64,000 bases of DNA from Candidatus Krumholzibacteriota bacterium (GTDB lineage Bacteria; Krumholzibacteriota; Krumholzibacteriia; JAJRXK01): positions 64,001-128,000 of the forward strand of contig CAVSGG010000012.1 of assembly GCA_963727455.1 (NCBI GenBank), read 5' to 3'. The translations under genes and the position numbers were made by a program. Under the pieces are notes generated by a model. The model was not told where the DNA came from and did no database searches. It saw only the letters and a program-made list of their open reading frames with translations. This document shows positions 14,339-44,097 of this stretch, in pieces; position 1 is the stretch's first letter; the number at the start of each line of letters is the position of its first letter.

Positions 14339-15384
14339 CGTCTACCTCCCTCCCTTCGGCGCGGTGCGCCGCCTCGCGCAGTCCCAGGATTCTCGTAATC
14401 AACTCGACCACCCGGTTGGCGTAGCCCCAACCGTTGTCGTACCAGATCACCGACTTGGCCAGGTTTCCTCCGATGACGAGAGTGCAGAGACTGTCGAAGA
14501 TCGCCGAGTGCGAATTCCCGATAATGTCGCTGCTCACCACCGCATCCTCGCTGTACTCGACGATCGAGGCGTAAGTGGTCTTGGCCGCCGATCGAATCAC
14601 CTCGTTGATCTCCTCGCGTTTCACGTCACGCTCTAGTAGGCAGGTGAGATCGATGTTCGATCCGTCGGGCACCGGCACGTTGAGCGCCATGCCATCCAGC
14701 TTGCCTTCGAGCTCCGGAAGCACGCGCCCGATCCCCGCGGGAGAGTAGGTCGAGGTGGGAATGATGTTCTCCGCCGCGGCGCGACTTCTCCTCAGATCGG
14801 CTCCGGGGACGTCGGCCAGGCGAAGGGCATTGGTGTAGGCGTGCACGGAGGTCATGACCGCGTGCGCCACTCCGAAGTTGTCGTCCAAGTAGGCGCAGGA
14901 TCGGCGCCAAGCGTTGATGGTGCAGGAGCCGTTGCTCACGATACGATGCGAAGCGTCGAGGGCATCGTCGTTCACCCCGGTCACGATCAGGGCATCCACG
15001 TCCTCGGGCGTCTTGGGCGGGTAGCACAGAATGACCGCGTGGGCGCCCCGGTCCAGATGCCGGGTGAGCATCTCGCGCGTGCGGTATTTGCCCGGTGGCC
15101 TCGATGACCACGTCCACCCCCAGCGCGCCCCAGTCCACCTCACCCGGCTCTCTGGCCGTGATCATCTGAATCTGCCGGCCCTTCACGTACATCGCGCTCC
15201 CCACGACCGAAACCGGGTCGCGGAAGCGCCCGTGGACGGTGTCGAATTTCAGCAGATATTCCAGACCCTTGGGATCGGCCACGTCGACGATGGCTCGGAC
15301 TTCGATATCGTCGCGAGGATAGACGATGCGGAAGATGTTCCGGCCGATGCGCCCGAAACCCATGATTCCGATTCGTACGTTCAT
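14335..15384 (-). CDS. Divergent GAPDH paralog (several frameshifts; end approximate)
   Basis: GIMGFGRIGR, FDTVHGRF, SNGSCTIN, HAYTN, WYDNGWGY, spread across ORF frames 14626-15732 and 13929-15143. Confidence 0.85.
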
Positions 15385-15676
15385 ATCCGCTCTCACTTCC
15401 GATTGTAGAAGACGCGGGCGAGAGTTGGTCCCCCGCGCCGTCCCGATGCGAGGCATCAAGCTAGCGCCGTTGCGCCAGATTATCCAGTCCCGCGTGCCGG
15501 CGGCCCTCTCGACGCCATCTTGCCGCCCCACCCCACAAGTGCTAGTGTGCCTTGCCGCCTCCGGGAAGACCCTGGAGGCCACAATTCCGGATCGGATCGC
15601 TCCCCCGCGGGCGGGGGACGAGAGCGGCGAGACCCGCACTTTCGGATTGCGGATCGCATTCTCCAAGGAGGACGAA

Positions 15677-16796
15677 GTGGCGAAATATCGCATCGCATGG
15701 ATGCCCGGCGACGGCGTGGGCAAGGAAGTCATGCAGGCTGCGCGAATCTGTTTGGATGCTTTGAACTTCGACGCCGAATACGCCGGACGCGGAAATTGGC
15801 TGGGAGCTGTGGATGAAGGAGGGCAATCCCCTGCCCGATCGCACCCTGGAAATTTTGCGCGGCACCGATGCCTGCCTCTTCGGCGCCATCACCTCCAAGC
15901 CCAAGGCCGAGGCCGAGGCGAGTCTGCCCGAAAATCTCAGAGGCAAGGGACACGAGTACTTCAGTCCCATCGTGCGGCTCCGCCAGGAATTCGACCTGCA
16001 CACCAATCTCAGACCCTGCAAGGCCTACCCGGGGAATCCCCTCAACTACCGGGACACCATCGATCTCGTGGTGTTCCGCGAGAACACCGAGGGACTCTAC
16101 GTCGGAATCGAGTGGAGCCCGGTGCCCGAGGAGTTGTGGAAATCGGTCCGGGCCAATCACAAGAAAGCGGCCCGCTTCGATTCCACGCCACTTGACGAAA
16201 TGGCGATGAGCGTCAGGATCATCACCGAGAAGGGAGCGCGGCGCATCGTGACCCAGGCTTTCGAATATGCCAAGAAGCACGGACGCAAGAGCGTGACCTT
16301 GGTGGAAAAGCCCAACGTTCTGCGTGAAACCAGCGGTCTCATGACGCGCGTCGCGCGTGAAGTCGCGGCTGGCTATCCGGGAATCGAGCTCTGGGAGACC
16401 AACATCGATGCCATGATGATGTGGCTGGTGAAGAACCCCGAGAGCTACGAGGTCATCGTCACTTCGAACATGTTCGGCGACATCACTAGCGACCTCTGCG
16501 CGCAGTTGGTCGGCGGTCTCGGATTCGCGTGCAGCGGTAACATTGGCGACGAGTACGCCGTCTTCGAGCCCACTCACGGCAGTGCGCCAAAATACGAGGG
16601 CCAGAACAAGGTCAATCCCATCGCGGAGATCCTCACCGCGAAAATGATGCTCGAGTGGCTCGGGGAAGGGCAGTTGGCACGACGCTTGGAAGGCGCCGTG
16701 GCCGAGGTCATCGCGGAGGCCAAGGTGCGTACCTACGACATGGGAGGCAACAGCACGACTCTGGAACTCGCTGAGGCCGTGGCTGCCAAACTCTAG
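15677..16796 (+). CDS. Isocitrate/homoisocitrate/isopropylmalate dehydrogenase family (frameshift near 15785)
   Basis: AAGGAGG RBS and GTG start; [46 protein letters not shown]. Confidence 0.9.
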
Positions 16797-29004: not shown

Positions 29005-30207
29005 ATGAAGCTGGTCGAACACCTCGGCAAGCGCCTCCTTGCCCGATCTGGAATTTCGACGCCGAAGAGTGAGCTCGCGAGCTCTTCCGCCGACGCGCTG
29101 CGCGCTGCGGAGAAAGCTCGAGGGGCCCGTGGTCGTCAAGGCTCAGATCTTGGCTCCCGGCCGTGGGAAGCACGGCGGAATTCTCTTCGCTGAAAACGCC
29201 AAGGAGGCGGCCGAAGCGGCCGAGCTCCCTACTGAACAAGAACTTCGGTCCGGAGTTGTGCAGTAGCGTCCTGATCGAGGAACGCTTGAACATCGCCGAG
29301 GAACTCTACCTGGCGTTCACGGTGGACGCTCCGAGTCGCCGACTGAATCTGATCCTCACCCGACACGGCGGCGGAGATGTCGAGAAGATCTTCCGCGAGC
29401 AACCGCAAGATGTGATCGTGGAGCCCATCGGCGCTTTCGAAACCTTCCATCCCTTCAAGGGAAGAGAGCTCGCGCTGAGAATGGGGCTGCGCGGCAAGGC
29501 GGTGTTGAAAGTCGGCGATGCCATCACCAAACTCGTCGCCTGCGGACGCGCGAACGATTGTCGTCTCGCCGAAATCAACCCGCTGGTTCTCACCGAGGAC
29601 GGGCAGGTCGTCGCGGCCGACGCAGTGATGAACGTGGACGAGGACGCCCACTTTCGTCTGCGCTGGATGAACGAGTTCGGATTGTCCATGGAGGAGGAAC
29701 GCCCCCGGCAAGCCACACCGCGCGAGCTCTTGGCGGCGGAGATCGACCGGGTGGATTACCGCGGTTCGGTCCATTATCAGGACATCAACGAGAACGGCGA
29801 CGTGGGAACGGTAACGGTGGGAAGCGGATTCTCCATCACCATGCTCGACGTCCTGGGCAATTACGGACTGAAGCCGGCCAACTTCTGCGACTGCTCGGGA
29901 AGCCCGCCCGCCGAAAAGGTCCGCAAGAGTTGCGAGATCGTTCTGAGCATCCCCAAGATCAAGGCCTTCCTGTTTCTGAGCGGGATCATGACCCAGGACC
30001 TCACCGTCACCGCCCAGGGGATCATCGAAGCCTACCGGGAACTGTCGCCCACCATTCCCTTCATGGTGAAGTTGGCGGGCAATCGCGATCGCGAGGCCTA
30101 CCAGATGATGGTCGATGCCGGTCTGCCCCACGTGTACCAGACGGGAGGATCCGGTGGAGTCGATCGTCGAAGACTGCGTCCGTCTTCTGGAAGAGGGGAA
30201 GAGCTGA
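29005..30207 (+). CDS. Succinyl-CoA synthetase beta-like ATP-grasp subunit, possibly citryl-CoA synthetase large subunit (frameshifts near 29120, 29225, 30143)
   Basis: MKLVEHLGK, VVVKAQI..GRGKHGG, LAEINPL, PANFCD; corrected C-terminus ...VRLLEEGKS* whose TGA overlaps the next ATG. Confidence 0.82.
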
Positions 30208-31121
30208 TGGCCATCCTCGTGAATCAAGACACGCGCTGCGTCATCCAGGGAGCCACCGGTCAGGGCGGCAAGCGCTTCATCCAACGCATGATCGACTTCG
30301 GCTCGCCACCGGTGGCGGGCGTCACCCCGGGCAAGGGCGGGGAAGAAGTGGCGGGGGTGCCCGTCTTCGACACCGTCAAGGAAGCGGTGGCCGCAACTAG
30401 CTGTGACTTTTCCTCCATCAACGTGCCTCCCGCGCTGGTGAAGGACGCTGCCTTCGAGGCCTTCGACGCCGGCATCCGCAAGATCTTCATGTACGCCGAG
30501 CGAGTTCCCTTGCACGACGCGATGCAGATCATGGCCTACGGCGACGAAGTCGGCGCCACCATGGTCGGCCCCAACAGCCCCGGCATCGTCAGCCCGGGCA
30601 AGTACCGCCTGGGAGGACTCGGCGGTGACAGAGAGTACGTGGCCGAGATCTTCAAGAAAGGTGAAGTGGGGCTGTGCAGCCGCAGCGGAGGCATGACCTC
30701 GACTTTGGGCTACACCATCAGTCAGGGCGGCCTGGGCCTCACTACCGCGGTGGGCTTGGGCGGGGACGCGATCATCGGCTCGCCCTTCACCAAAGTGCTG
30801 CCGCTCTTCGAAGCCGATCCCGAGACCAAGGCCATCTGCATGTTCTGCGAGATTGGCGGTAGCATGGAAGAGGAAGCGGCCGAGCTCATCAGGAGCGGAG
30901 CCATCAAGAAGCCGATCGTCGCCTTCATCGCCGGCCGCGAGGCGCGCGCCGGCTTCCGTTTCGGACACGCCGGCGCGCTGGTGGAGCGTGGTCGCGGTAC
31001 CTACGAGAGCAAGGTCGAAGCTCTGTCTTCGGCAAAGGTGGCCATCGCCAAGAATCTCAGAGACATTCCGGTTCTCTTGCGCGAAGCCCTGGGCATGCCC
31101 TCGGGCAAGGAGCAGTCATGA
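30207..31121 (+). CDS. Succinyl-CoA synthetase alpha-like CoA-binding subunit, possibly citryl-CoA synthetase small subunit
   Basis: IQGATG, GVTPGKGG, GPNSPG, SRSGGMT, phospho-His motif FGHAGA. Confidence 0.88.
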   Translation: MAILVNQDTRCVIQGATGQGGKRFIQRMIDFGSPPVAGVTPGKGGEEVAGVPVFDTVKEAVAATSCDFSSINVPPALVKDAAFEAFDAGIRKIFMYAERVPLHDAMQIMAYGDEVGATMVGPNSPGIVSPGKYRLGGLGGDREYVAEIFKKGEVGLCSRSGGMTSTLGYTISQGGLGLTTAVGLGGDAIIGSPFTKVLPLFEADPETKAICMFCEIGGSMEEEAAELIRSGAIKKPIVAFIAGREARAGFRFGHAGALVERGRGTYESKVEALSSAKVAIAKNLRDIPVLLREALGMPSGKEQS

Positions 31122-31949: not shown

Positions 31950-33807
31950 ATGCACATGCTCCAATCTGCCGGCCAATCGCCCAAGCGGCGCGCCGCCTTT
32001 TTTGTGCTCTTGCTCCTGCCCCTGCTCGCTCTTTGGCCCTGCTTCGCTCGCGCGAGTTCACAGCTGAAACAGATCCTGCCTCCGGCCCTCCCCTGGCACG
32101 GCAAGAGCGAGGAGCTCATCGCGTCCGAAGGACGACCCCTGGATCACCCCGGCCGAGGAAATGCACCTGCGCGACAGCCCCGACTACGATCTGACTCACG
32201 ACTGGCTCATGCAGCTGGTGGATGCGGCGCCGCAGCTGAAACTCGTCTCTCTAGGGAAGAGCTACGAGCAACGCGACATCTGGATGGTCATCGCGAGCAA
32301 GGAGGGTGTGTGCACGCCCGAAGCCCTCGAGGCCAACGGGCGCCCCACGCTCTTGGCGCAGGCCGGGATCCACAGCGGGGAGATCGATGGCAAGGATGCC
32401 GGGCTCATGCTCTTGCGCGACATGACGGTGGATGCGCGCTGCCCCGAACTGCTCGATGGCGCCAACTTTCTCTTCATTCCCATCCTGAGCGTGGATGCCC
32501 ACGAACGTCGTTCCACGACAAACCGCATCAACCAACGCGGACCGCGCACCCAGGGTTGGCGCAGCAATGCGCGCAACCTGAACCTCAATCGCGATTACAC
32601 CAAGCTGGATACCCCCGAGATCCGGGCGGTGGTGAAGGCTCTCAACCGTTGGCCGGTTGATCTCTACCTGGATATCCACGTCACCGACGGTGCCGACTAC
32701 CAGTACGACATCACCTACGGCTTCAACGGGAGTTTCGCCTGGTCTCCCTCCATCGGGGGCTGGCTCGAAAGTACCTTCCGCCCCGCTCTGGATCACGAGC
32801 TGAAAGCAATGGGACACGTTCCCGGCGATTTGATCTTCGCGGCAAACGGCAAGGACATGCGTGGCGGGGTCTACTCCTTCACCGCGGGGCCACGCTTTTC
32901 CACCGGTTACGGGGACGCACGCCACTTGCCGACGGTGCTGGTGGAAAACCACTCTCTGAAGGACTACCGCCGGCGCGTCTTGGGAACGCGGGTATTTCTG
33001 GAGGGGACCCTGCGGCTTTTGGCCAAGGAAGGCGAGAGCCTGCGCGATTCGACGGCGCGCGATCGCATCCGTCGCCGCAAGGAGATCCCCAGCGAGTTCG
33101 AGGTGCCCGAGACGAAGCCCGAGCTCGTCGACTTTCTGGGGGTGAAGTCGCGCCGCGTGTTCTCAGAGATCTCGGGCGACAGCGTGGTGCAGTGGCTCGG
33201 CGAGCCCGAGACGATTCGCATCCCGCGCATCGTGGCCAACCAGCCCGCCGGTATGCTCACCCGTCCCAAGGCCTACTGGATCCCCGCCGCCTGGCCTGAG
33301 GTGATCGAACGCCTGAAGCTGCACGGCATCAAAGTGGAAAAAGTCGGGGAGCCCGAGGGACAGTCGGCGCAACTCGAATTCTACCGGCTGCAGGATCCGA
33401 AGCTGGCCAAGGAGCCCTACGAGGGTCACGCGCGCGTCAGCGCCGAAATCGAACCCGTGCAGAGGAGCGTCAACTTCGCGATGGGCTCCGCCAGGGTTCC
33501 CACCGACCAGCCGCTGGGCGATCTGGCCATGCTGCTCTTGGAACCACAGAGCCCGGACTCCTTCTTCCAATGGGGCTTCTTTCTCTCGAGCCTGCAGCGC
33601 ACCGAGTATTTCGAGAGTTACGTGATGGAACCCATGGCGCGCGCAATGCTTGCAGAGAATGACAGTTTACGCGTTCAGTTCGAGCAAAAGTTGAAGAATG
33701 ACGAGGACTTCGCGAAGGACCCGAACGCGCGGCTGGAGTGGTTCTACGAGAAGACGCCCTACTTCGACAAGCGCTACCGCATCTATCCGGTGGGCATCGA
33801 GCGCTGA
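31950..33807 (+). CDS. Secreted M14 family zinc carboxypeptidase (frameshift near 32128)
   Basis: Signal peptide; GIHSGE, NLNRD, DIHVTDG zinc and substrate motifs. Confidence 0.88.
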
Positions 33808-33925
33808 CTGGCGCTCGATGCCTTCGTTCTGCTAGGATCGCCGAGGCCCTTCCCCATCGGCCGTGCCTTCCCCCCATGCCGCATCGTCGACCTGCCTGCC
33901 TCTCGCGTCCACTCGGAGGCTGCCC

Positions 33926-36341
33926 ATGGATCTTCAGCGTCGTCCCTACTCTTCTCGCACCTCTTTCGCACGCGATCTGCTGGTCATCAACGCGCTGATC
34001 TGGCTGCTCGCCCCACTTCCCGCGCGGGCGGGCGTCGAGCCCGTCCCTTTCCATGGCTGGCTCGTGGCGCCTTTGGGAAATGCTGTCCTGGGCGACACCT
34101 CTCTGCCGAACTATCTGGTCGTCAACAACATCGGGAGCAGCGGACAGGACGGCGTGCGCTTCGACCTAGGCGCCACCCGCGGACGCATCGGCCCCGTACG
34201 TTGGATGGCGCCCGAGAGTCTTTCCGGTCGAAAGTACCGGGTGGTATCCGAGGGAAGCGATGCGGCGGGAACTCTGTGGTGGGCCACGGATGCAGTGGAC
34301 CGCGGTGGGGTGTTCGATTTCAGCATTGATCCCGGCAACCTGGTAGTCCAGGGAACCATGGTGGCGATCACCCTGACCAACGATGGCGATGTGGTCGCTA
34401 CCCTCGAGCTGGACAACAGTACGAGTCCTCTCTTCAGCTCCAGCGCTCCTTTTGTCGGTGTGAGTGAAGGACTCGGCGAGATCGCGGCGGACTTCGAGGC
34501 AAGCGCCGCGGGCAAGGCCATCGTTCCGCCGATCCTGGACGACCGCAATTTCGAATTCGAACCCGGAAACCAGATTAGCATCGACGGCGTGGGAACTTTC
34601 CCCGCCGACGGGGTGCACATCTCCCACCGGCTGCGCCATCGCGACCGGCTGGTGCTCCACTACCTGGATCTGCTCTTCACCGAGCCGGCGGGTTCGACCG
34701 GAACGCAGAGGCTGCGCGATCTGGCCATGGGACCCTTCTTCGGGACGACGCGCGGGCGAGGAGGAGTGCTGCTCGAGAGCGCTTCGGTGGGGTCTCAGGA
34801 TCGCCTCACAGTCAGCAACATCGGCAGCAGCGGTGAGGATGGAGTCGCCTGCGACTTCGAGGAGGATGAAGTGGGAATCGCCCTGTTGTGGGATCCCTCG
34901 ACCCTCGCTCCTCTGAGCGAAGGGGCCAGGATCCTCATCGCGGCGGACGCGGCGCAGGGGACCGCGCCGGAGGATCCCGTCGTCTCGTGTTCCGCCCTCT
35001 ACGAGAATCGGCAGCTCTCGATCGTCCGCGATCCCGCCACCACCGGCTCACCGCTGGAGGTGGCCTTCTACCTGGATGACGTCATGGTGAGCGCAGCTTC
35101 CGACCCCAGCGCCGCGCTGCAGGTGAGCGCGAGCCAATGGCCCAGCAGCGCCGGAGTCGAGAACGGCGATGCCCCGGGCGAATCCATCGTCTCCTGGGGC
35201 TTTGACCAGCCGGTCTCCATGCAAGCGGGGACCGACTCTCCCGTCTTGGCCGACCAGGTGCGCCTGCTCGTACCCAGTCTGGTTGCGCCGACCAAATCGA
35301 CCCGGCGTGTCGTCCTCACTCCCCCGAGCAGCGCGAGCCCGTACGACTGGACAGTTCTGGGACGCCGAAACACGATCCACCCGCCGGATCCCATCACGCC
35401 CTACGCCGCACTGCGTGGCCTTCACGCCGCGGGGATCGTGCACCGGGACATCGCCGCTCGCGTCGCCAACATAGGGAGTAGCGGTGAGGACGGCGTCAGG
35501 GTGGAATTCGAGCCCGCATCCAACTTGGGACTCAAGTGGCACTCGTCGTGGACCGGCGCCGGGTCTCCCGGCGAGCGCATCATGATGCCGACCTACGGCA
35601 CCACGAACAGCGACCCCGATCGGCCGATCATCGTCGGCCAGCTTTGGAACGAGAGCACGGGCAGTGAGGTGCAGGTGGGAGGAGATCTGAGCCCGCTGGG
35701 CGCCGGTGGACTGGTCTTCGAGCTCTATGACGATGGCGTATTGGTGAACAGCATCACCGCGCTGAACGATGCACCGGCGTTGAGCCTGCCCTCACCGCCC
35801 GACAGGGATGAGCGTGCGGGCTGGCGCAAACGGCCCGGTATTCTACCTGCAGCTCGTCGCAAACACCCAGGTCTCGACCCTCAGCTCACCGACCAAGACG
35901 ACGAGCCAGGCCGATTTCATCGTGGCAAAACCCAGCGAGTCACCAGCTGTGGTTCCCACCGAACTGGTCGCGCTCTCTCTTCGTGCGAGCTCTGTCGCCT
36001 GGGTCGTGATCGACGATACCAGCCCCCACTACGCGGTCGACGCGCCGCCGGCGCGGGCGGCTGCCGCTCTGACTCTGTATCCCAACGTGCCCAATCCCTT
36101 CAATCCACGCACCAGCATCGCCTTCGATCTGGACCGCTCCGGTCCCGTGAGTCTGCGCATCTACGATGTGCGGGGACAACTGGTGGACGTGCTTCAGGAC
36201 GGCTATCTGAGAGCAGGTCACTACGTGAAGATCTGGGAGGGCTTGGACGCCCGAGGCAAGGACGTGGCATCAGGGATCTACTATTTGCAGCTGGATACAG
36301 ATGGCAGACGCAGGACGAGCAAGATGAGTCTGGTGCGCTAG
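33926..36341 (+). CDS. Secreted three-repeat protein with C-terminal FlgD-Ig/T9SS-like sorting domain (frameshift near 35798)
   Basis: Signal peptide ending ARA; three NIGSSG[EQ]DGV repeats; C-terminus LYPNVPNPFNPRTSIAFDL...IYDVRGQLV...WEG...VASGIYY...KMSLVR. Confidence 0.85.
34127..35497 (+). repeat. Three protein-level repeats marked by NIGSSG[EQ]DGV at 34127, 34817 and 35468
   Basis: Motif spacing 690 and 651 nt (230 and 217 aa); downstream Trp and the ITLTNDGDVV/VAFYLDDVMV/FELYDDGVLV hairpin also recur. Confidence 0.9.
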
Positions 36342-37102
36342 GCGTTTTCTTCATCGAGCAGGACGCGTGCGACCTCCTCGGCCACGATGCGGGCCAGGCG
36401 CTGAGTATCGTCAGCCCATTTCCCCCGCGGCACGACACGAGCGCCGCGCGCTGCGGGATCAGGGCCACCTCCACTACTGGCCACGAGCGCGCTCACCTCG
36501 TCACGGCTCAACGCGCGGGCGCCGCCGGCCAATTCGGCTAGAAGGGTGATCTGCGCCAGGTGCTCCACCGTCTCCAGGGTCTGAAACGCGGTCATGGGAT
36601 CGGGCCCGCAGGCCACCACCCCGTGGTTGGGCATGAGCACCGCGTCGTGACGGGTGATGTGCTCACAAACCGCTCCAGCCACCTCATCCGTCCCCGGGGT
36701 CGCGTAGCGGCTCAGCGGAACCTTCCCCAGACCGAGCACCACCTCGGGCAGAAGACAGTCCTCAAGACCGCGCCCGGCCGTGGCCAGCGCGGTAGCCCAG
36801 CTGGGGTGCCCGTGCACCACCGCGCCCACCTCGCCCCGCGCACGGAAGATGGCCAGGTGCATCTGAATCTCGGTCGAGGGCTTGCCCTGGGCAGCGCGAC
36901 CATCCATCCCCACCTCGACCAGATCCTCCGGCTTCAAGAATCCCTTGGCCGCTCCGGAGCGGGTCGCCAAGACCGTCTTCTCGTCGAGGCGCGCCGATAG
37001 GTTGCCCTCGCAGGCCACGATGAGCCGCTGCTGGTACATCAGCGCGCCCACGCGGATGAGTTCGCGGGTAGCATCTTCGCGGGTAAGTCTGAGCTTTGTC
37101 AC
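36338..37102 (-). CDS. Class II aldolase/adducin family protein
   Basis: EGNLSAR, PSTEIQMH, VVHGHP, MPNHG. Confidence 0.9.
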   Translation of the reverse strand: MTKLRLTREDATRELIRVGALMYQQRLIVACEGNLSARLDEKTVLATRSGAAKGFLKPEDLVEVGMDGRAAQGKPSTEIQMHLAIFRARGEVGAVVHGHPSWATALATAGRGLEDCLLPEVVLGLGKVPLSRYATPGTDEVAGAVCEHITRHDAVLMPNHGVVACGPDPMTAFQTLETVEHLAQITLLAELAGGARALSRDEVSALVASSGGGPDPAARGARVVPRGKWADDTQRLARIVAEEVARVLLDEENA

Positions 37103-37142
37103 GGCAACTCCCAGTTCTCCGATACCGCGCACTCGAAGCGCC

Positions 37143-37637
37143 TCAGAGCTTCGCCAGCTCGGCCAGCGCCTCCACCCCATTGCGCTTCAAGTAGGCCACG
37201 ATGCCGCCCTCATCACGCAGCTTGAGCATCAGAGGCGAAAGTTCGACGGGAATCTTTGTGCCCTGCGTCTCGTTCACCAGGCACTTCGCCTCGATGTCCA
37301 ACTCCAGCTCGTCCTTCTCCTTGATTCCATCGGTATCCGCGATCAACAGGAGCAGACCCTGGTTCATGCAGTTGCGGTAGAAAATGCGCGCGAAGCTCTT
37401 GGCAATGATGGCTTCGATTCCGGTGTGGGCGAGCGAAGTGACCGCGGTCTCGCGACTACTGCCACAGCCGAAGTTGCGACCGGCCACCACGAAGTCCCCC
37501 TTCTTCACATTGGGCGCGAACTCGGGCCGGTACTCGATGAAGCAGATCTTGGCCAGCTCCTCGGGGTCGGTGGTTTGGTTGTAGCGACCGGGGGTGATGA
37601 GGTCGGTGTTGATGTTGTCGCCGAAGAGCCAGTTCAT
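37143..37637 (-). CDS. 3-isopropylmalate dehydratase/homoaconitase small subunit (LeuD/HacB type)
   Basis: DNINTDLITP, NFGCGSSRE, SFARIFYRN. Confidence 0.9.
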   Translation of the reverse strand: MNWLFGDNINTDLITPGRYNQTTDPEELAKICFIEYRPEFAPNVKKGDFVVAGRNFGCGSSRETAVTSLAHTGIEAIIAKSFARIFYRNCMNQGLLLLIADTDGIKEKDELELDIEAKCLVNETQGTKIPVELSPLMLKLRDEGGIVAYLKRNGVEALAELAKL

Positions 37638-37638
37638 C

Positions 37639-38901
37639 TCAACCTCGCACCGTCTGGGGGAGATACTGCCGCGGATCGCTGATCACGCCGGTCAGCGCGG
37701 TGGCGGCCGCGGTGGCGGGGCTCGCCAGATAGATCTGGGCGGTGGGGCTTCCCATGCGGCCCTTGAAATTGCGGTTCGAGGTGGAGACGCACACCTCGTC
37801 ATCGTCCAGAACTCCTCCCTGCCGTCCCAGGCAGGCCCCGCAGCCGGGGTTGGTAATGGCGGCGCCCATGTTCAGGAAGAACTCCACGAGCCCCTCCTTC
37901 ATCGCCTGCAAATACACGCTGCGGCTGGCCGGGGTGATCACCACGCGCGTATTGGGATCGAGCTCACGGCCCTCCCAGATCGACTTCACGATGCGCAGAT
38001 CCTCGATGCGGCAATTGGTACACGAACCGATGAAGACCTGATCCACGGGACGCCCTGCCACTTCCTCCACCTTGGCCTCCTGATCGATGTCGTGAGGACA
38101 GGCCACGGTGGGCACCAGCTCTTCGACATCGATCTCGATCGTCTCGCAATATTGCGCATCCGGGTCGCTGCCGTTGGACGCCCAGTCCCCTTCGCGACCC
38201 TGCCCTTTCAAGTACTCACGAGTGCGTTCGTCACTGGGCACGATCGCGGTCTTGGCGCCCAGCTCGGCGCACATGTTGGTCAAAGTCAGACGGTCGGGGA
38301 CCGGCCAGTTCCGAACCCTCGATCCCCCGAACTCGATGATCTTGTAGGTGCAGTGCTCGGTGCCGAGTTTCCCCGCGATATGCAGGATGACGTCCTTGGC
38401 GAAGACCCCGTGCGGAAGCTCGCCCTCGATGAGGATTCGAATGACCTCCGGCACGCGAAACCACAGCTTGCCGCTGGCCAACGCCACCGCAGCGTCGGTG
38501 CTTCCTACGCCGATGGTGAGGGCCCCGAGTCCTCCGCCGGTAGGGGTGTGACTGTCGGCGCCCAAGACCAGCATGGAGGGATGAATGTAATCTTCCGCCA
38601 GGAGCTGGTGGCACACCCCGTCGGTGCGAATTTTGATTCCCTGCTCCTTGGCGAAAGCTCGCACCTTCTTGTGGAGATGGGCCATGGCGGTGCTGGGCGC
38701 GGGATAGGCGTGGTCGAAGGGAATCACGATCCGCTGCGGATCGAAGACCTTGTCCGCAATTTCGTAGAAGGGATCCACCGCCCAAGCGCCGGTGGTATCG
38801 TGCGCCATCACCAAGTCGAGATCGCAGATCACCGTGTCGCCGGGATGGACCTCGCGTCCGCAGTGCGCGGAGAAAATCTTCTCCGGAAGATTCTGTCCCA
38901 T
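37639..38901 (-). CDS. 3-isopropylmalate dehydratase/homoaconitase large subunit (LeuC/HacA type)
   Basis: DSHT, FIGSCTN, PGCGACLG, STSNRNFKGRMG, YLASP. Confidence 0.92.
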   Translation of the reverse strand: MGQNLPEKIFSAHCGREVHPGDTVICDLDLVMAHDTTGAWAVDPFYEIADKVFDPQRIVIPFDHAYPAPSTAMAHLHKKVRAFAKEQGIKIRTDGVCHQLLAEDYIHPSMLVLGADSHTPTGGGLGALTIGVGSTDAAVALASGKLWFRVPEVIRILIEGELPHGVFAKDVILHIAGKLGTEHCTYKIIEFGGSRVRNWPVPDRLTLTNMCAELGAKTAIVPSDERTREYLKGQGREGDWASNGSDPDAQYCETIEIDVEELVPTVACPHDIDQEAKVEEVAGRPVDQVFIGSCTNCRIEDLRIVKSIWEGRELDPNTRVVITPASRSVYLQAMKEGLVEFFLNMGAAITNPGCGACLGRQGGVLDDDEVCVSTSNRNFKGRMGSPTAQIYLASPATAAATALTGVISDPRQYLPQTVRG

Positions 38902-38910
38902 GGATCTCCC

Positions 38911-39132
38911 TCAGCCGCCCGCCACCGGGCGTACGAGTTCGAGCCGGTCGCCTTCGCGCAAGACCGTGGTTGCGAAGGAATCCCGGCCGCGTGGCTCACC
39001 ATTCCACTCGACGACCAAGTAGCGCTCGTCGAGTTCCAGTCTCTCGATCAAATCCCTGAGGGTGGATCCTGCGGGGACACTCGACTCCTTGCCGTTGACC
39101 CTCAGCGAAATCACCCTCTCATCCGACGCCAT
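38911..39132 (-). CDS. thiS: Sulfur carrier protein ThiS
   Basis: 73 aa ubiquitin-like protein ending in GG; next to thiH and thiG. Confidence 0.9.
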   Translation of the reverse strand: MASDERVISLRVNGKESSVPAGSTLRDLIERLELDERYLVVEWNGEPRGRDSFATTVLREGDRLELVRPVAGG

Positions 39133-40246
39133 GCAGTGTCGCCTCCCAGTCCTTCCACACCGGCTGCAGCCCGAGTTCGCTCAAGCGCCTCGCCACCTCG
39201 GCCGGAGTACGTTGATCCGCAACCTCGAACTGTTCCGCCTGGTCGTTGGGATCCTCATAGCCTCCGGGTTCGGTACGGCTGCCCGCCGAGATCTGGGTGA
39301 TCCCCAGTCGCACCAGACCGTCGCGAAACGCGGCGCTCTCCCGGGTGGAGAGGACCAGGCCGAGGTCCGGCAGACAGATTCTCAAAGCGCACACGAGCTG
39401 CGCGAGTTCCGCGTCCTTGACCCGCACCGGGGCGTCGATGGCTTGCAGGGCGCTCTGCAGGCGCGGGACCGATACCGAGATGCGGCTGCGCCAGCAGTGT
39501 TTCTGCAGCCACTGCGCGTGAAGGAAGGTCGCCAGCGAATCCGCGCGCCAATCGCTCAAGCCCAAGAGACTGCCGATTCCGATCTGCTTCATTCCTGCCC
39601 GCGCCGCGCGCTCGGGAGTTTCCAGCCGCCAGTCGAAGTTCTTTTTCCTGCCCGCCGAGATGATAGCGCGCGTAGGCCTCGCGGTCGTAGGTCTCCTGGT
39701 ACACCGAGAGTGCGTCGACCCCGCGCCGACCAGCTCGCGGTAGCCCTTCTCGTATTGTGGCGCGACTTCGATGGCCACCGATGCGAAGCGCGGACGTAGG
39801 CGCTGCACGATATCCTTCAAATAGCCCGTGGAGACGATGCGCGGATGCTCGCCGCTGACCAGGAGAATGTGACGGAATCCCTGTTTGCGCAGGATCTCCG
39901 CCTCCCGCAGCGCCTGCTCTGCTTTCAGGGTCACCCGTTCGATTTGGTGCTCACGACTGAAGCCGCAGTAGGTGCAGGTATCGATGCACTCGTTGGAGAC
40001 GTAGAGCGGAGCGTAGAGCTGCACGATGCGCCCGAAACGCTGCACCGTGATCCTGCGGGCGAGTTGGGCCAGATCCTCCAGCCGCCTTTGGGCCGCGGGA
40101 GAAAGCAGGCGCGCGAATCGCTCCAAGACTGCCGCCCGAAGCGATTCAACGCCTGCTCGACTTGCACGTCGGTGGTGGCCAGCGAGAGTTCGCGCCAGGC
40201 GGAGAAGTCGGTCGCGTCGAAGAGTTCCTGAAAGCGTGTCGCTCAT
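39119..40246 (-). CDS. thiH: 2-iminoacetate synthase ThiH, radical SAM (compensating frameshifts)
   Basis: [24 protein letters not shown] (alternate frame), [23 protein letters not shown]. Confidence 0.9.
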
Positions 40247-42336: not shown

Positions 42337-44097
42337 CCAAGGCATCGAGCGAATCGGAGACGTGGGGCATGCGCACCGCGCTGCTCCACAAGAGGCCACG
42401 CAGGAGACGATCGAAAGTGCTCATCTCGCGACGGTAGCGAACGAGAGCTCACCCTGTCATCCTGCAGGAATTCGCGCCAAGCTCTTGGCGACTTCCACCG
42501 CCTCCTTCAGGCCGCCCAACTCATCCACCAACCCGAGCTTCTCAGCGTCCCTGCCACTCCATACCCTTCCGCGTGCGATGGAGTCCGCTTGCGCGAAACT
42601 CAGGCCACGGCCTTCGGCCACCTTGTCGACGAAGCGCTCGTAGAAGCGCCTGAGTTGCGCGCGGATTTCCACTCGCTGTTCCTCGGAGAAGGGCCTCAGG
42701 TCGGTGAAGAGATCGGCATTGTCTCCGCGCGCGATCACCTCATGGTTGATTCCCACCTTCTGGTACAGCCCGGTCAGATCCGCTTTGCCCACGAAGACTC
42801 CGATGCTTCCGGTGAGGGTGAGCGGTTCGGCCACGATGGCGTCGGCGGACATCGAAATGTAGTAACCGCCGCTGGCCGCGAGATCGCCCATGCAGACCAC
42901 CAGCGGTTTCTTGGCGCGCACACGCTCCAGCTCCCGCCAGATGAGATCGCTGGCCAGGGTCGAACCTCCGGGGGAATCGACGCGCAGCACCACCGCCTTG
43001 ACACTGTCGTCTTCCCGCGCCCGACGCAGACGCTGGATCGAGGGTGTCGCTGCCCAAGAGTCCCGAGCCGGGCTTCGCGTGGCCGGGGACGATGTCGCCC
43101 GTGGCGTAGATCAAGGCCACGCGCCGGCGGCGATCCTGGCGCGGGGCATGGTAGGGCGCGTCCAGATAGTCCAGCGCATCGATGGTGACGAGGTCCTCCG
43201 CGCCGCTGCCCAGCTGCGCATCGAGATCGACCGAATCCACCAGCCGGTCCACCAAGCCCTCCTCCATCGCGCTGCGGGCATCGAAGTAGCCGCGATCGAC
43301 GAGGTCCTCCATGTGACGCTCGGAGAAACCGCGCGCGCGCGCCATGGCCTTGATCCAGGTGTCGAAGACCGCGTCCACGTAGACTTCGACCTGTTGGCGC
43401 GCGGGATCGCTCGGTCCCTGGCGGGTCCAGGTTTCCGGAGCAGACTTGTACGCTCCAATCGCCACGAAATCAGCCTGTACTCCAACTTTGTTGAGAAGTC
43501 CCTTGAAGTAGGTCATCTTGGCCTGAAGGCCCAGGATGAGTAGATTGCCCTCCGGTGCCAGAGCGATCGAATCGGCGGCGGTGGCCAAAAAATACGCGCG
43601 CGTGCTGGCCACGCTCAAATAGGCCCAGACCGGTTTGTGCGCCTCGTGGACGCGCTCGAGCAGGGTCCGAAGCTCCTGGGCCTGTGCCCATCCGCCGGAG
43701 TACAGGTCGGGCTTCAGGATCACTCCCTTGATCCGCGGGTCCTCGCAGGCGCGGTTCAGAGCGCGCACGAAGTCCTCGTGACTGGGCTCCTCGGGGCGCA
43801 GCAGCGAGCGCAGCCCTCCGTCCTCGCGAGCCTGCTTCGGGATACTCCGCGCCAAAGGAGAGCTCGAGCCAGCTGCCGTCCTCCACGCTGGGGCGCCCCC
43901 CCATCAGAAGGAAGCGAACTCCCAGGTAGCCCAGCCCCAGCAGAACGAAGGAGGATCAGGGGACCAATCCACCAGCGGGAACGCCGGCGCGAGGGCCTCC
44001 GCGGCCGGCGCGGCGCCCTTCGCTCGGAGCGGGAGTCGAGGGACGAAGGGCTGAAATTGCTCCTTCCGCCGGGAGGCGGAGGCGGGGCTTGAGTCAT
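42245..44097 (-). CDS. sppA: Signal peptide peptidase SppA, two-domain form (multiple frameshifts)
   Basis: DPRIKGV, YFLATAAD, GAYKSAPE, LRVDSPGGS, AASGGYY, TGSIGV, GRVWSG; corrected end ...LPWNLRVD* at 42245. Confidence 0.9.

Follow-up and report, generated by a model that had tools for sequence, protein, structure and literature searches.

Diversity-generating retroelements (DGRs) carry out a templated rewriting of segments in exported or ligand-binding proteins, while Rickettsia palindromic elements and similar in-frame coding repeats are inserted, each genome having numerous palindromic DNA copies that resemble one another. Both resemble in part what we found in an exported-protein gene at 33926–36341 on the + strand of the 64,000-nt stretch of Candidatus Krumholzibacteriota DNA analysed here (the window). 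In contrast to DGR targets, no linked reverse transcriptase or template repeat was found at this locus, and its patches are foreign conserved motifs spread along the protein instead of one variable region. The likeness to Rickettsia palindromic elements lies in a short peptide that turns up repeatedly in proteins with no relation to each other; the differences are that each genome has one matching copy, which is codon-scrambled, non-palindromic and derived from a protein motif, and that host sequence has been replaced. The nearest described process is SPDIR, in which patches of 3–100 bp from intra- or extragenomic DNA are introduced through ectopic single strands, very rarely in wild type (10.1101/2023.11.22.568220). 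Patch size and replacement by ectopic DNA are alike, the 42-bp patch discussed below fitting the range of 3–~100 bp; however, SPDIR is rare and has highly variable donors, whereas the patches seen here come from a small, fixed stock that is met again in one phylum after another and always in frame. A search covering mainly the open literature found no description of such short patches shared by unrelated exported proteins.

If intact, the gene encodes 804 residues, comprising a probable signal peptide (residues ~1–35, 33926–34030(+), judged by eye from the sequence), three beta-sandwich repeats and a C-terminal FlgD-Ig/T9SS-like sorting domain. Comparison with P0002, an intact 804-aa twin, suggests a start at ATG 33926; the true end is TAG 36341, and the 892-aa ORF in the window is a frameshifted reading of the same gene. 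The host gene has one extra C in a C run at ~35798–35800(+) relative to its ortholog on L028, a locus labelled Ca. Krumholzibacteriota whose gene order matches that of the window here, in keeping with an origin of the window in that phylum; the extra base is probably a read error. Four other window ORFs (29163–31121(+), 39119–40246(−), 42740–43855(−) and 14626–15732(−)) also read as fused or truncated, among them a GAPDH-like ORF that matches profile positions 1–104 only and others that we take to be succinyl-CoA synthetase-, ThiH- and SppA-like, which suggests that the assembly contains more frameshifts of this kind. The sorting-like domain occupies 36090–36338(+), in the reading frame that follows the extra base (E-values of 3.8e-7 for PF13860 and 2.7e-5 for PF18962); the PF13860 score is above cutoff, as is a match of P0002 to TIGR04183. 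The neighbours of the gene encode a zinc carboxypeptidase and a class II aldolase.

Direct-repeat comparison placed the three repeat cores at 34127–34156(+), 34817–34846(+) and 35468–35497(+); they form one 51-nt direct-repeat family (73% identity to the reference copy, spacing 690 and 651 nt), and the core is found in 127 of 137 collected proteins. The host protein and its relatives end in sorting domains of the FlgD-Ig/T9SS-like, GC-dockerin and PEP-CTERM kinds, like other exported proteins anchored in this way. The repeat domain matched no Pfam, NCBIfam or PHROGs family. A PDB sequence search returned only weak FlgD and kinase matches (E-values of 0.07 or worse), plasmid and phage collections gave sorting-domain or weak matches at most, an Rfam search gave 0 matches, and searches of the ESM Atlas gave nothing informative.

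The original prediction read the stretch at 35411–35461(+) as a tyrosine-kinase subdomain VIb (HRD-loop) motif fused to the core of repeat 3, and translation gave exactly this: the motif is in frame with the long ORF, with all three repeat cores and with the subdomain VIII motif upstream, and repeat core 3 follows it directly at 35468. The patch itself comprises 14 codons (35420–35461(+)). The VIb pattern matched once in the window and in 0 of 100 shuffles; a 37-aa piece around the motif scored only E = 0.3 against Pfam kinase models, so that the case rests on recurrence and not on the score of the host-gene copy. Upstream lies a second patch, from tyrosine-kinase subdomain VIII (the APE-loop) and an older gain, at 34190–34231(+) (PF07714 positions 163–185, E-values of 0.014–0.02). 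With this patch starting at 34190 and the VIb motif at 35411, the claimed distance of 407 codons and the reversal of kinase order both hold. The catalytic Asn is missing from the translated motif, as had been claimed; it is kept in 19 of 31 non-kinase VIb copies, and its lack here is most simply read as the patch ending at that point. A third, non-kinase patch resembling a VgrG/baseplate OB-fold is placed at 35612–35650(+) indirectly, via locus L031: 8–11 of 14 residues are identical to an L031 stretch that falls within VgrG matches (E-values of 1e-8 to 2e-11), and the host-gene piece has no direct Pfam match. Two further long stretches, 34619–34660(+) and 35552–35602(+), are invariant in four close orthologs and missing from the sister clade, and their cores have a pN of 0 against L028; no donor was found, and they may be additional patches.

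An AlphaFold2 model of residues 36–626, built from a 74-sequence alignment (pLDDT 88, pTM 0.86), consists of strands only; helices as long as four residues are absent. In it the VIb patch makes up strands 468–472 and 475–479, a hairpin leading into core 3, and the VIII patch makes up strand 52–59 plus a loop. The best fold matches of the repeat domain were lectin/jelly-roll-type sandwiches of middling quality (best Z 10.0, rmsd 3.3, 155 aligned, to 3mep). We take the VIb patch in this protein to be structural or surface sequence and not catalytic.

A search over 1.84 billion representatives identified 133 relatives of the host protein, and a tree was built from 11 of 13 aligned proteins with the patch columns left out. 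All four proteins with VIb fall together on the same side of a branch with support of 100/100, which shows a single gain of VIb on the tree with vertical inheritance from there on, and the VIII patch is found in all eight wider-clade members having that region (the P0005 protein lacks the region, yet its DNA has the patch). The two kinase patches were thus acquired at different times, which bears out the claim that they are independent fragments. At the aligned site the sister proteins have an ordinary hairpin 1–4 residues longer; VIb is therefore a replacement and not an insertion. Among 136 repeat proteins VIb occurs in seven and VIII in ten, versus 0 in shuffles, with the qualification that the query contained both patches and so favoured such matches; in three of the seven VIb carriers the distance between patch and core is different (−31, −37 and +19, versus −16 in the host protein). 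Relatives also contain patches absent from the query, e.g., HU in P0060 (E-value of 4e-5), baseplate pieces in P0045 and P0070 (E-values of ~1e-3), and presumably RRM in P0006, P0007 and P0070. Aligned slots are occupied by different patches in different orthologs, and the VIII patch stays near-invariant at host identities of 25–30%. When look-alike landing sites were scored at the peptide level, with four offsets per site, the host-gene offset ranked 46 of 101, and only three of eight ortholog sites were in the top 5%, a mixed outcome.

A scan of GTDB with a single 14-codon pattern identified 33 loci, each in a different assembly, versus 0.6–1.6 expected from base composition, in agreement with the claim that the motif exceeds chance. 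Three of these (L005, L019 and L032) are true kinases and the other 30 are patches in non-kinase proteins, so that the count of non-kinase carriers is likewise above chance. As labelled, the latter include 13 Planctomycetota, six Bacteroidota, two Balneolaceae and four Verrucomicrobia, plus one each from Nitrospirales, Gemmatimonadales, Krumholzibacteriota, a proteobacterium and an archaeon; by our grouping they represent ~12 host families, among them beta-helix, RHS, HEAT, PEP-CTERM and SdrD-B-type proteins, and most start with a signal peptide or carry a sorting tail. Domain profiles, run on 30 of the 33 proteins, showed that the same carriers also hold pieces of VgrG, gp19, Hcp, HU and an integrin tail (E-value of 3e-6 for the last). 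From these matches the stock appears to comprise kinase, VgrG, Hcp, gp19, HU and integrin-tail segments and several without a known donor, in mostly exported, beta-rich proteins. The original attribution to a kinase donor family is supported and widened: the host gene does carry two kinase patches, donors also include non-kinase proteins, and the pattern spans phyla.

Several of the loci are unusual in themselves. L032 (4650–5900(−)) is an intron-containing tyrosine-kinase gene that looks eukaryotic within a bacterial contig and bin, and L005 (1–1305(−)), from a bacterial bin and lying on a contig of 1.3 kb, is another true kinase; both are probable eukaryotic contamination or misjoins, and both show the same motif variants as the patches. 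L019 (4633–10380(−)) is a bacterial kinase-AAA-GAF-GGDEF-EAL protein whose catalytic loop fits the tyrosine-kinase-like pattern, and a further set of true kinases (P0176–P0205) was left out of all analyses. The C-terminal part of an RHS protein (L010, 122–826(+)) has kinase-like patches, three in all, whose order is reversed, together with a stretch that we take to resemble EF-Tu. Tails dense in patches, which read as strings of the common stock, occur in L012 (9820–10722(−)), L031 (10–2397(+)), L006 (4178–7258(+)), L033 (2863–5547(−)) and P0206, with identical peptides repeated on scrambled codons; the low-complexity tail of L012, for instance, has three copies of one 11-residue segment with identical peptides and many synonymous differences. 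A protein named from Marinifilum breve has stock in common with the archaeal tail.

One PEP-CTERM family has several kinase patches at once. Its members are L029 (9692–10318(+)), L026, L007, L002, L008 and L013, with 38 further proteins (P0138–P0175), and they carry 3–4 kinase patches in kinase order; the HRD loop is kept in 37 of the 38 relatives and the N-terminal patch in 24. The model of this family is a beta-barrel, all-beta between terminal helices (pLDDT 89.5, with two of five models at ~62), and its best fold match is DynF (Z 10.2). A segment that is helical in kinases appears there as a strand, and the donor shape has thus not been kept.

At the DNA level the near-identity that the original prediction had proposed to look for among motif copies did not materialize: over 561 pairs of 42-nt copies the mean was 27.9 identical positions and the maximum 38, and the host-gene copy reached 35 at best. 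Patch GC3 tracks that of the host gene (rho 0.81; 30 of 34 rows, two kinases and two short ORFs being left out). Codons for the same residue are identical in 40% of comparisons between host families, versus 37% expected from host usage, and in 53% within families, versus 42% expected, the pairs in both cases not being independent. Between the host gene and L028 the three patches have a pS of 0.48 and a pN of 0.041, compared with 0.42 and 0.167 for the rest of the repeats; three neighbouring genes have pS values of 0.42–0.52, similar to that of the patches, and the pN/pS of the signal-peptide region is 0.71. A second 14-codon copy was found in none of the 33 assemblies, including the 3.8-Mb chromosome record L002; with one match per assembly no resident donor or 14-codon template is seen, and a resident donor gene is not supported. 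No template repeat of the VIb patch was found in 32000–38000 (templates shorter than 14 codons would escape the GTDB pattern), nor an internal inverted repeat over the patch.

The VIb patch of the host gene is of foreign origin beyond chance, replaced host sequence in frame, was gained separately from the VIII patch, and was inherited vertically with host codon usage; the model gives it a beta-strand role. As to how it arrived, we tentatively favour, at slightly less than even confidence, a 14-codon in-frame replacement that ultimately derives from a tyrosine-kinase gene of a eukaryote and that came by short-tract recombination out of a pool of patch-bearing genes shared by horizontal transfer. 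Incoming DNA would supply the patch, and recombination over short tracts of microhomology type, either SPDIR-like or as gene conversion, would copy it in. Other patch-bearing exported-protein genes could act as secondary donors, which would keep the stock small and common, and patches fitting the host fold would be retained under ordinary purifying selection, with codons drifting toward the usage of the host. No near-identical donor DNA was found that would document the recombination step. SPDIR, being very rare and without sequence specificity, fails on its own to explain why the patches that recur across phyla are so few, and it leaves the long intactness of some patches unexplained as well. 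Nor does plain structural selection obviously explain the near-invariance of VIII, the retention of the HRD loop in the PEP-CTERM family, or the identical L012 peptides with scrambled codons.

A rival reading is a dedicated trans-acting editor with DGR-like logic, unlinked to its targets, that would write and refresh patches in exported-protein genes, drawing on short templates kept in an inherited library. We consider this unlikely, if still a serious contender. It would fit a stock that is small and common to phyla and domains (203 7-mers are common to different protein groups versus 14–25 in shuffles, a count inflated because loci were chosen by the VIb pattern), the alternation of patches in the same slots, the patch-dense tails, and a PEP-CTERM family with 3–4 kinase patches in kinase order on a modelled beta-barrel. 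It would also fit copies that are either intact or absent, as no decayed VIb copies were seen (scores were 27–47 or at most 3). However, the 33 matches in 33 assemblies include no second copy that could serve as a 14-codon template, the 10-kb flanks of the carriers have no mobility gene in common, and the 94 ORFs scanned beside 29 loci gave no reverse transcriptase, integrase or transposase (E-value threshold 1e-6; some of these ORFs are probably spurious); nor was a reverse transcriptase found among the window ORFs scanned, 18 of them in one scan with a second scan besides. In addition, synonymous divergence of the patches equals that of the genome, and codon identity between host families is close to that expected from host usage. 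In its general form, i.e., an undescribed widespread system, unlinked to its targets, that writes short segments from an ancient common library (tyrosine-kinase, VgrG, Hcp, tail-tube, HU and integrin-tail motifs) into genes for exported proteins of bacteria and archaea and keeps them intact, we would put the idea marginally lower still; its strongest form, in which the peptide is conserved rather than the DNA, would agree with peptides that are identical although their codons are scrambled and with the lack of a resident template, and is at best very improbable.

A reading that concerns retention, and is compatible with either arrival route, is that patches persist because they are recognised, as mimics, decoys or tags directed toward eukaryotic predators or hosts or toward the injection systems of competitors. 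The donors, eukaryotic signalling proteins and injection-system parts, and the signal peptides or sorting tails of most carriers would suit such a role, as would the residue identity between the host protein and L028 (40/44 in patches versus 403/566 elsewhere, p = 0.004). Yet a comparison with the remaining beta-strands of three orthologs gives no significant excess (35/44 versus 197/283, p = 0.21), the VIb patch alone (12/14) gives p = 0.37, and across four orthologs 9 of its 14 positions do not vary, much as in other strands (127/208). Conservation among the GTDB matches is no evidence of selection, since the scan pattern itself demands conserved residues. The loss of donor shape in the PEP-CTERM model also speaks against this reading, and overall we regard recognition as improbable.

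That the host protein is a permuted or decayed kinase with remnant motifs is rejected as having a negligible probability. Two stretches do match the catalytic-loop and APE-loop regions of protein tyrosine kinases (PF07714), in variants resembling those of L005 and L032, and an unrelated PEP-CTERM family with patches in kinase order is automatically annotated as a kinase. Unlike tyrosine kinases, however, the host protein is exported and all-beta, with the order reversed and without the Asn, DFG or glycine loop, and searches of the host gene found no glycine-loop, DFG or subdomain IX pattern. It therefore fails on the bilobed fold with a helical C-lobe, on VIb-VII-VIII order within ~50 residues and on catalytic residues, and the original assertion that no kinase domain can form agrees with the helix-free model. 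The VIb patch was moreover gained late on the tree, and the PEP-CTERM family is itself modelled as all-beta between terminal helices. Among the matches listed by the fold searches there was no kinase, which in itself excludes nothing; the third repeat was barely covered in one search. Chance, an assembly chimera or synthetic sequence we likewise discount almost entirely. There is at least one frameshift in the window, L005 and L032 among the 33 matches look like eukaryotic DNA in bacterial bins, and the carriers are nearly all metagenome-assembled; against this, the orthologs come from ENA, JGI and NCBI with synteny and normal synonymous divergence, chance would give about one match, and the stock also occurs in the protein named from M. 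breve, which we take to be a cultured species.

The pattern stands whichever mechanism is right: segments of 10–30 residues from conserved proteins, including eukaryotic kinases, sit in unrelated folds (beta-sandwich, beta-barrel, beta-helix, RHS and HEAT proteins share the stock) in distant lineages. A practical consequence is that annotation is corrupted, as the PEP-CTERM carriers are labelled protein kinases in databases. Should a dedicated editor prove true, it would be a new diversification system. The finding means gene transfer below the scale of domains, recent enough to be mapped on trees, and with it the old question of whether proteins were built from common peptide segments becomes testable on living lineages.
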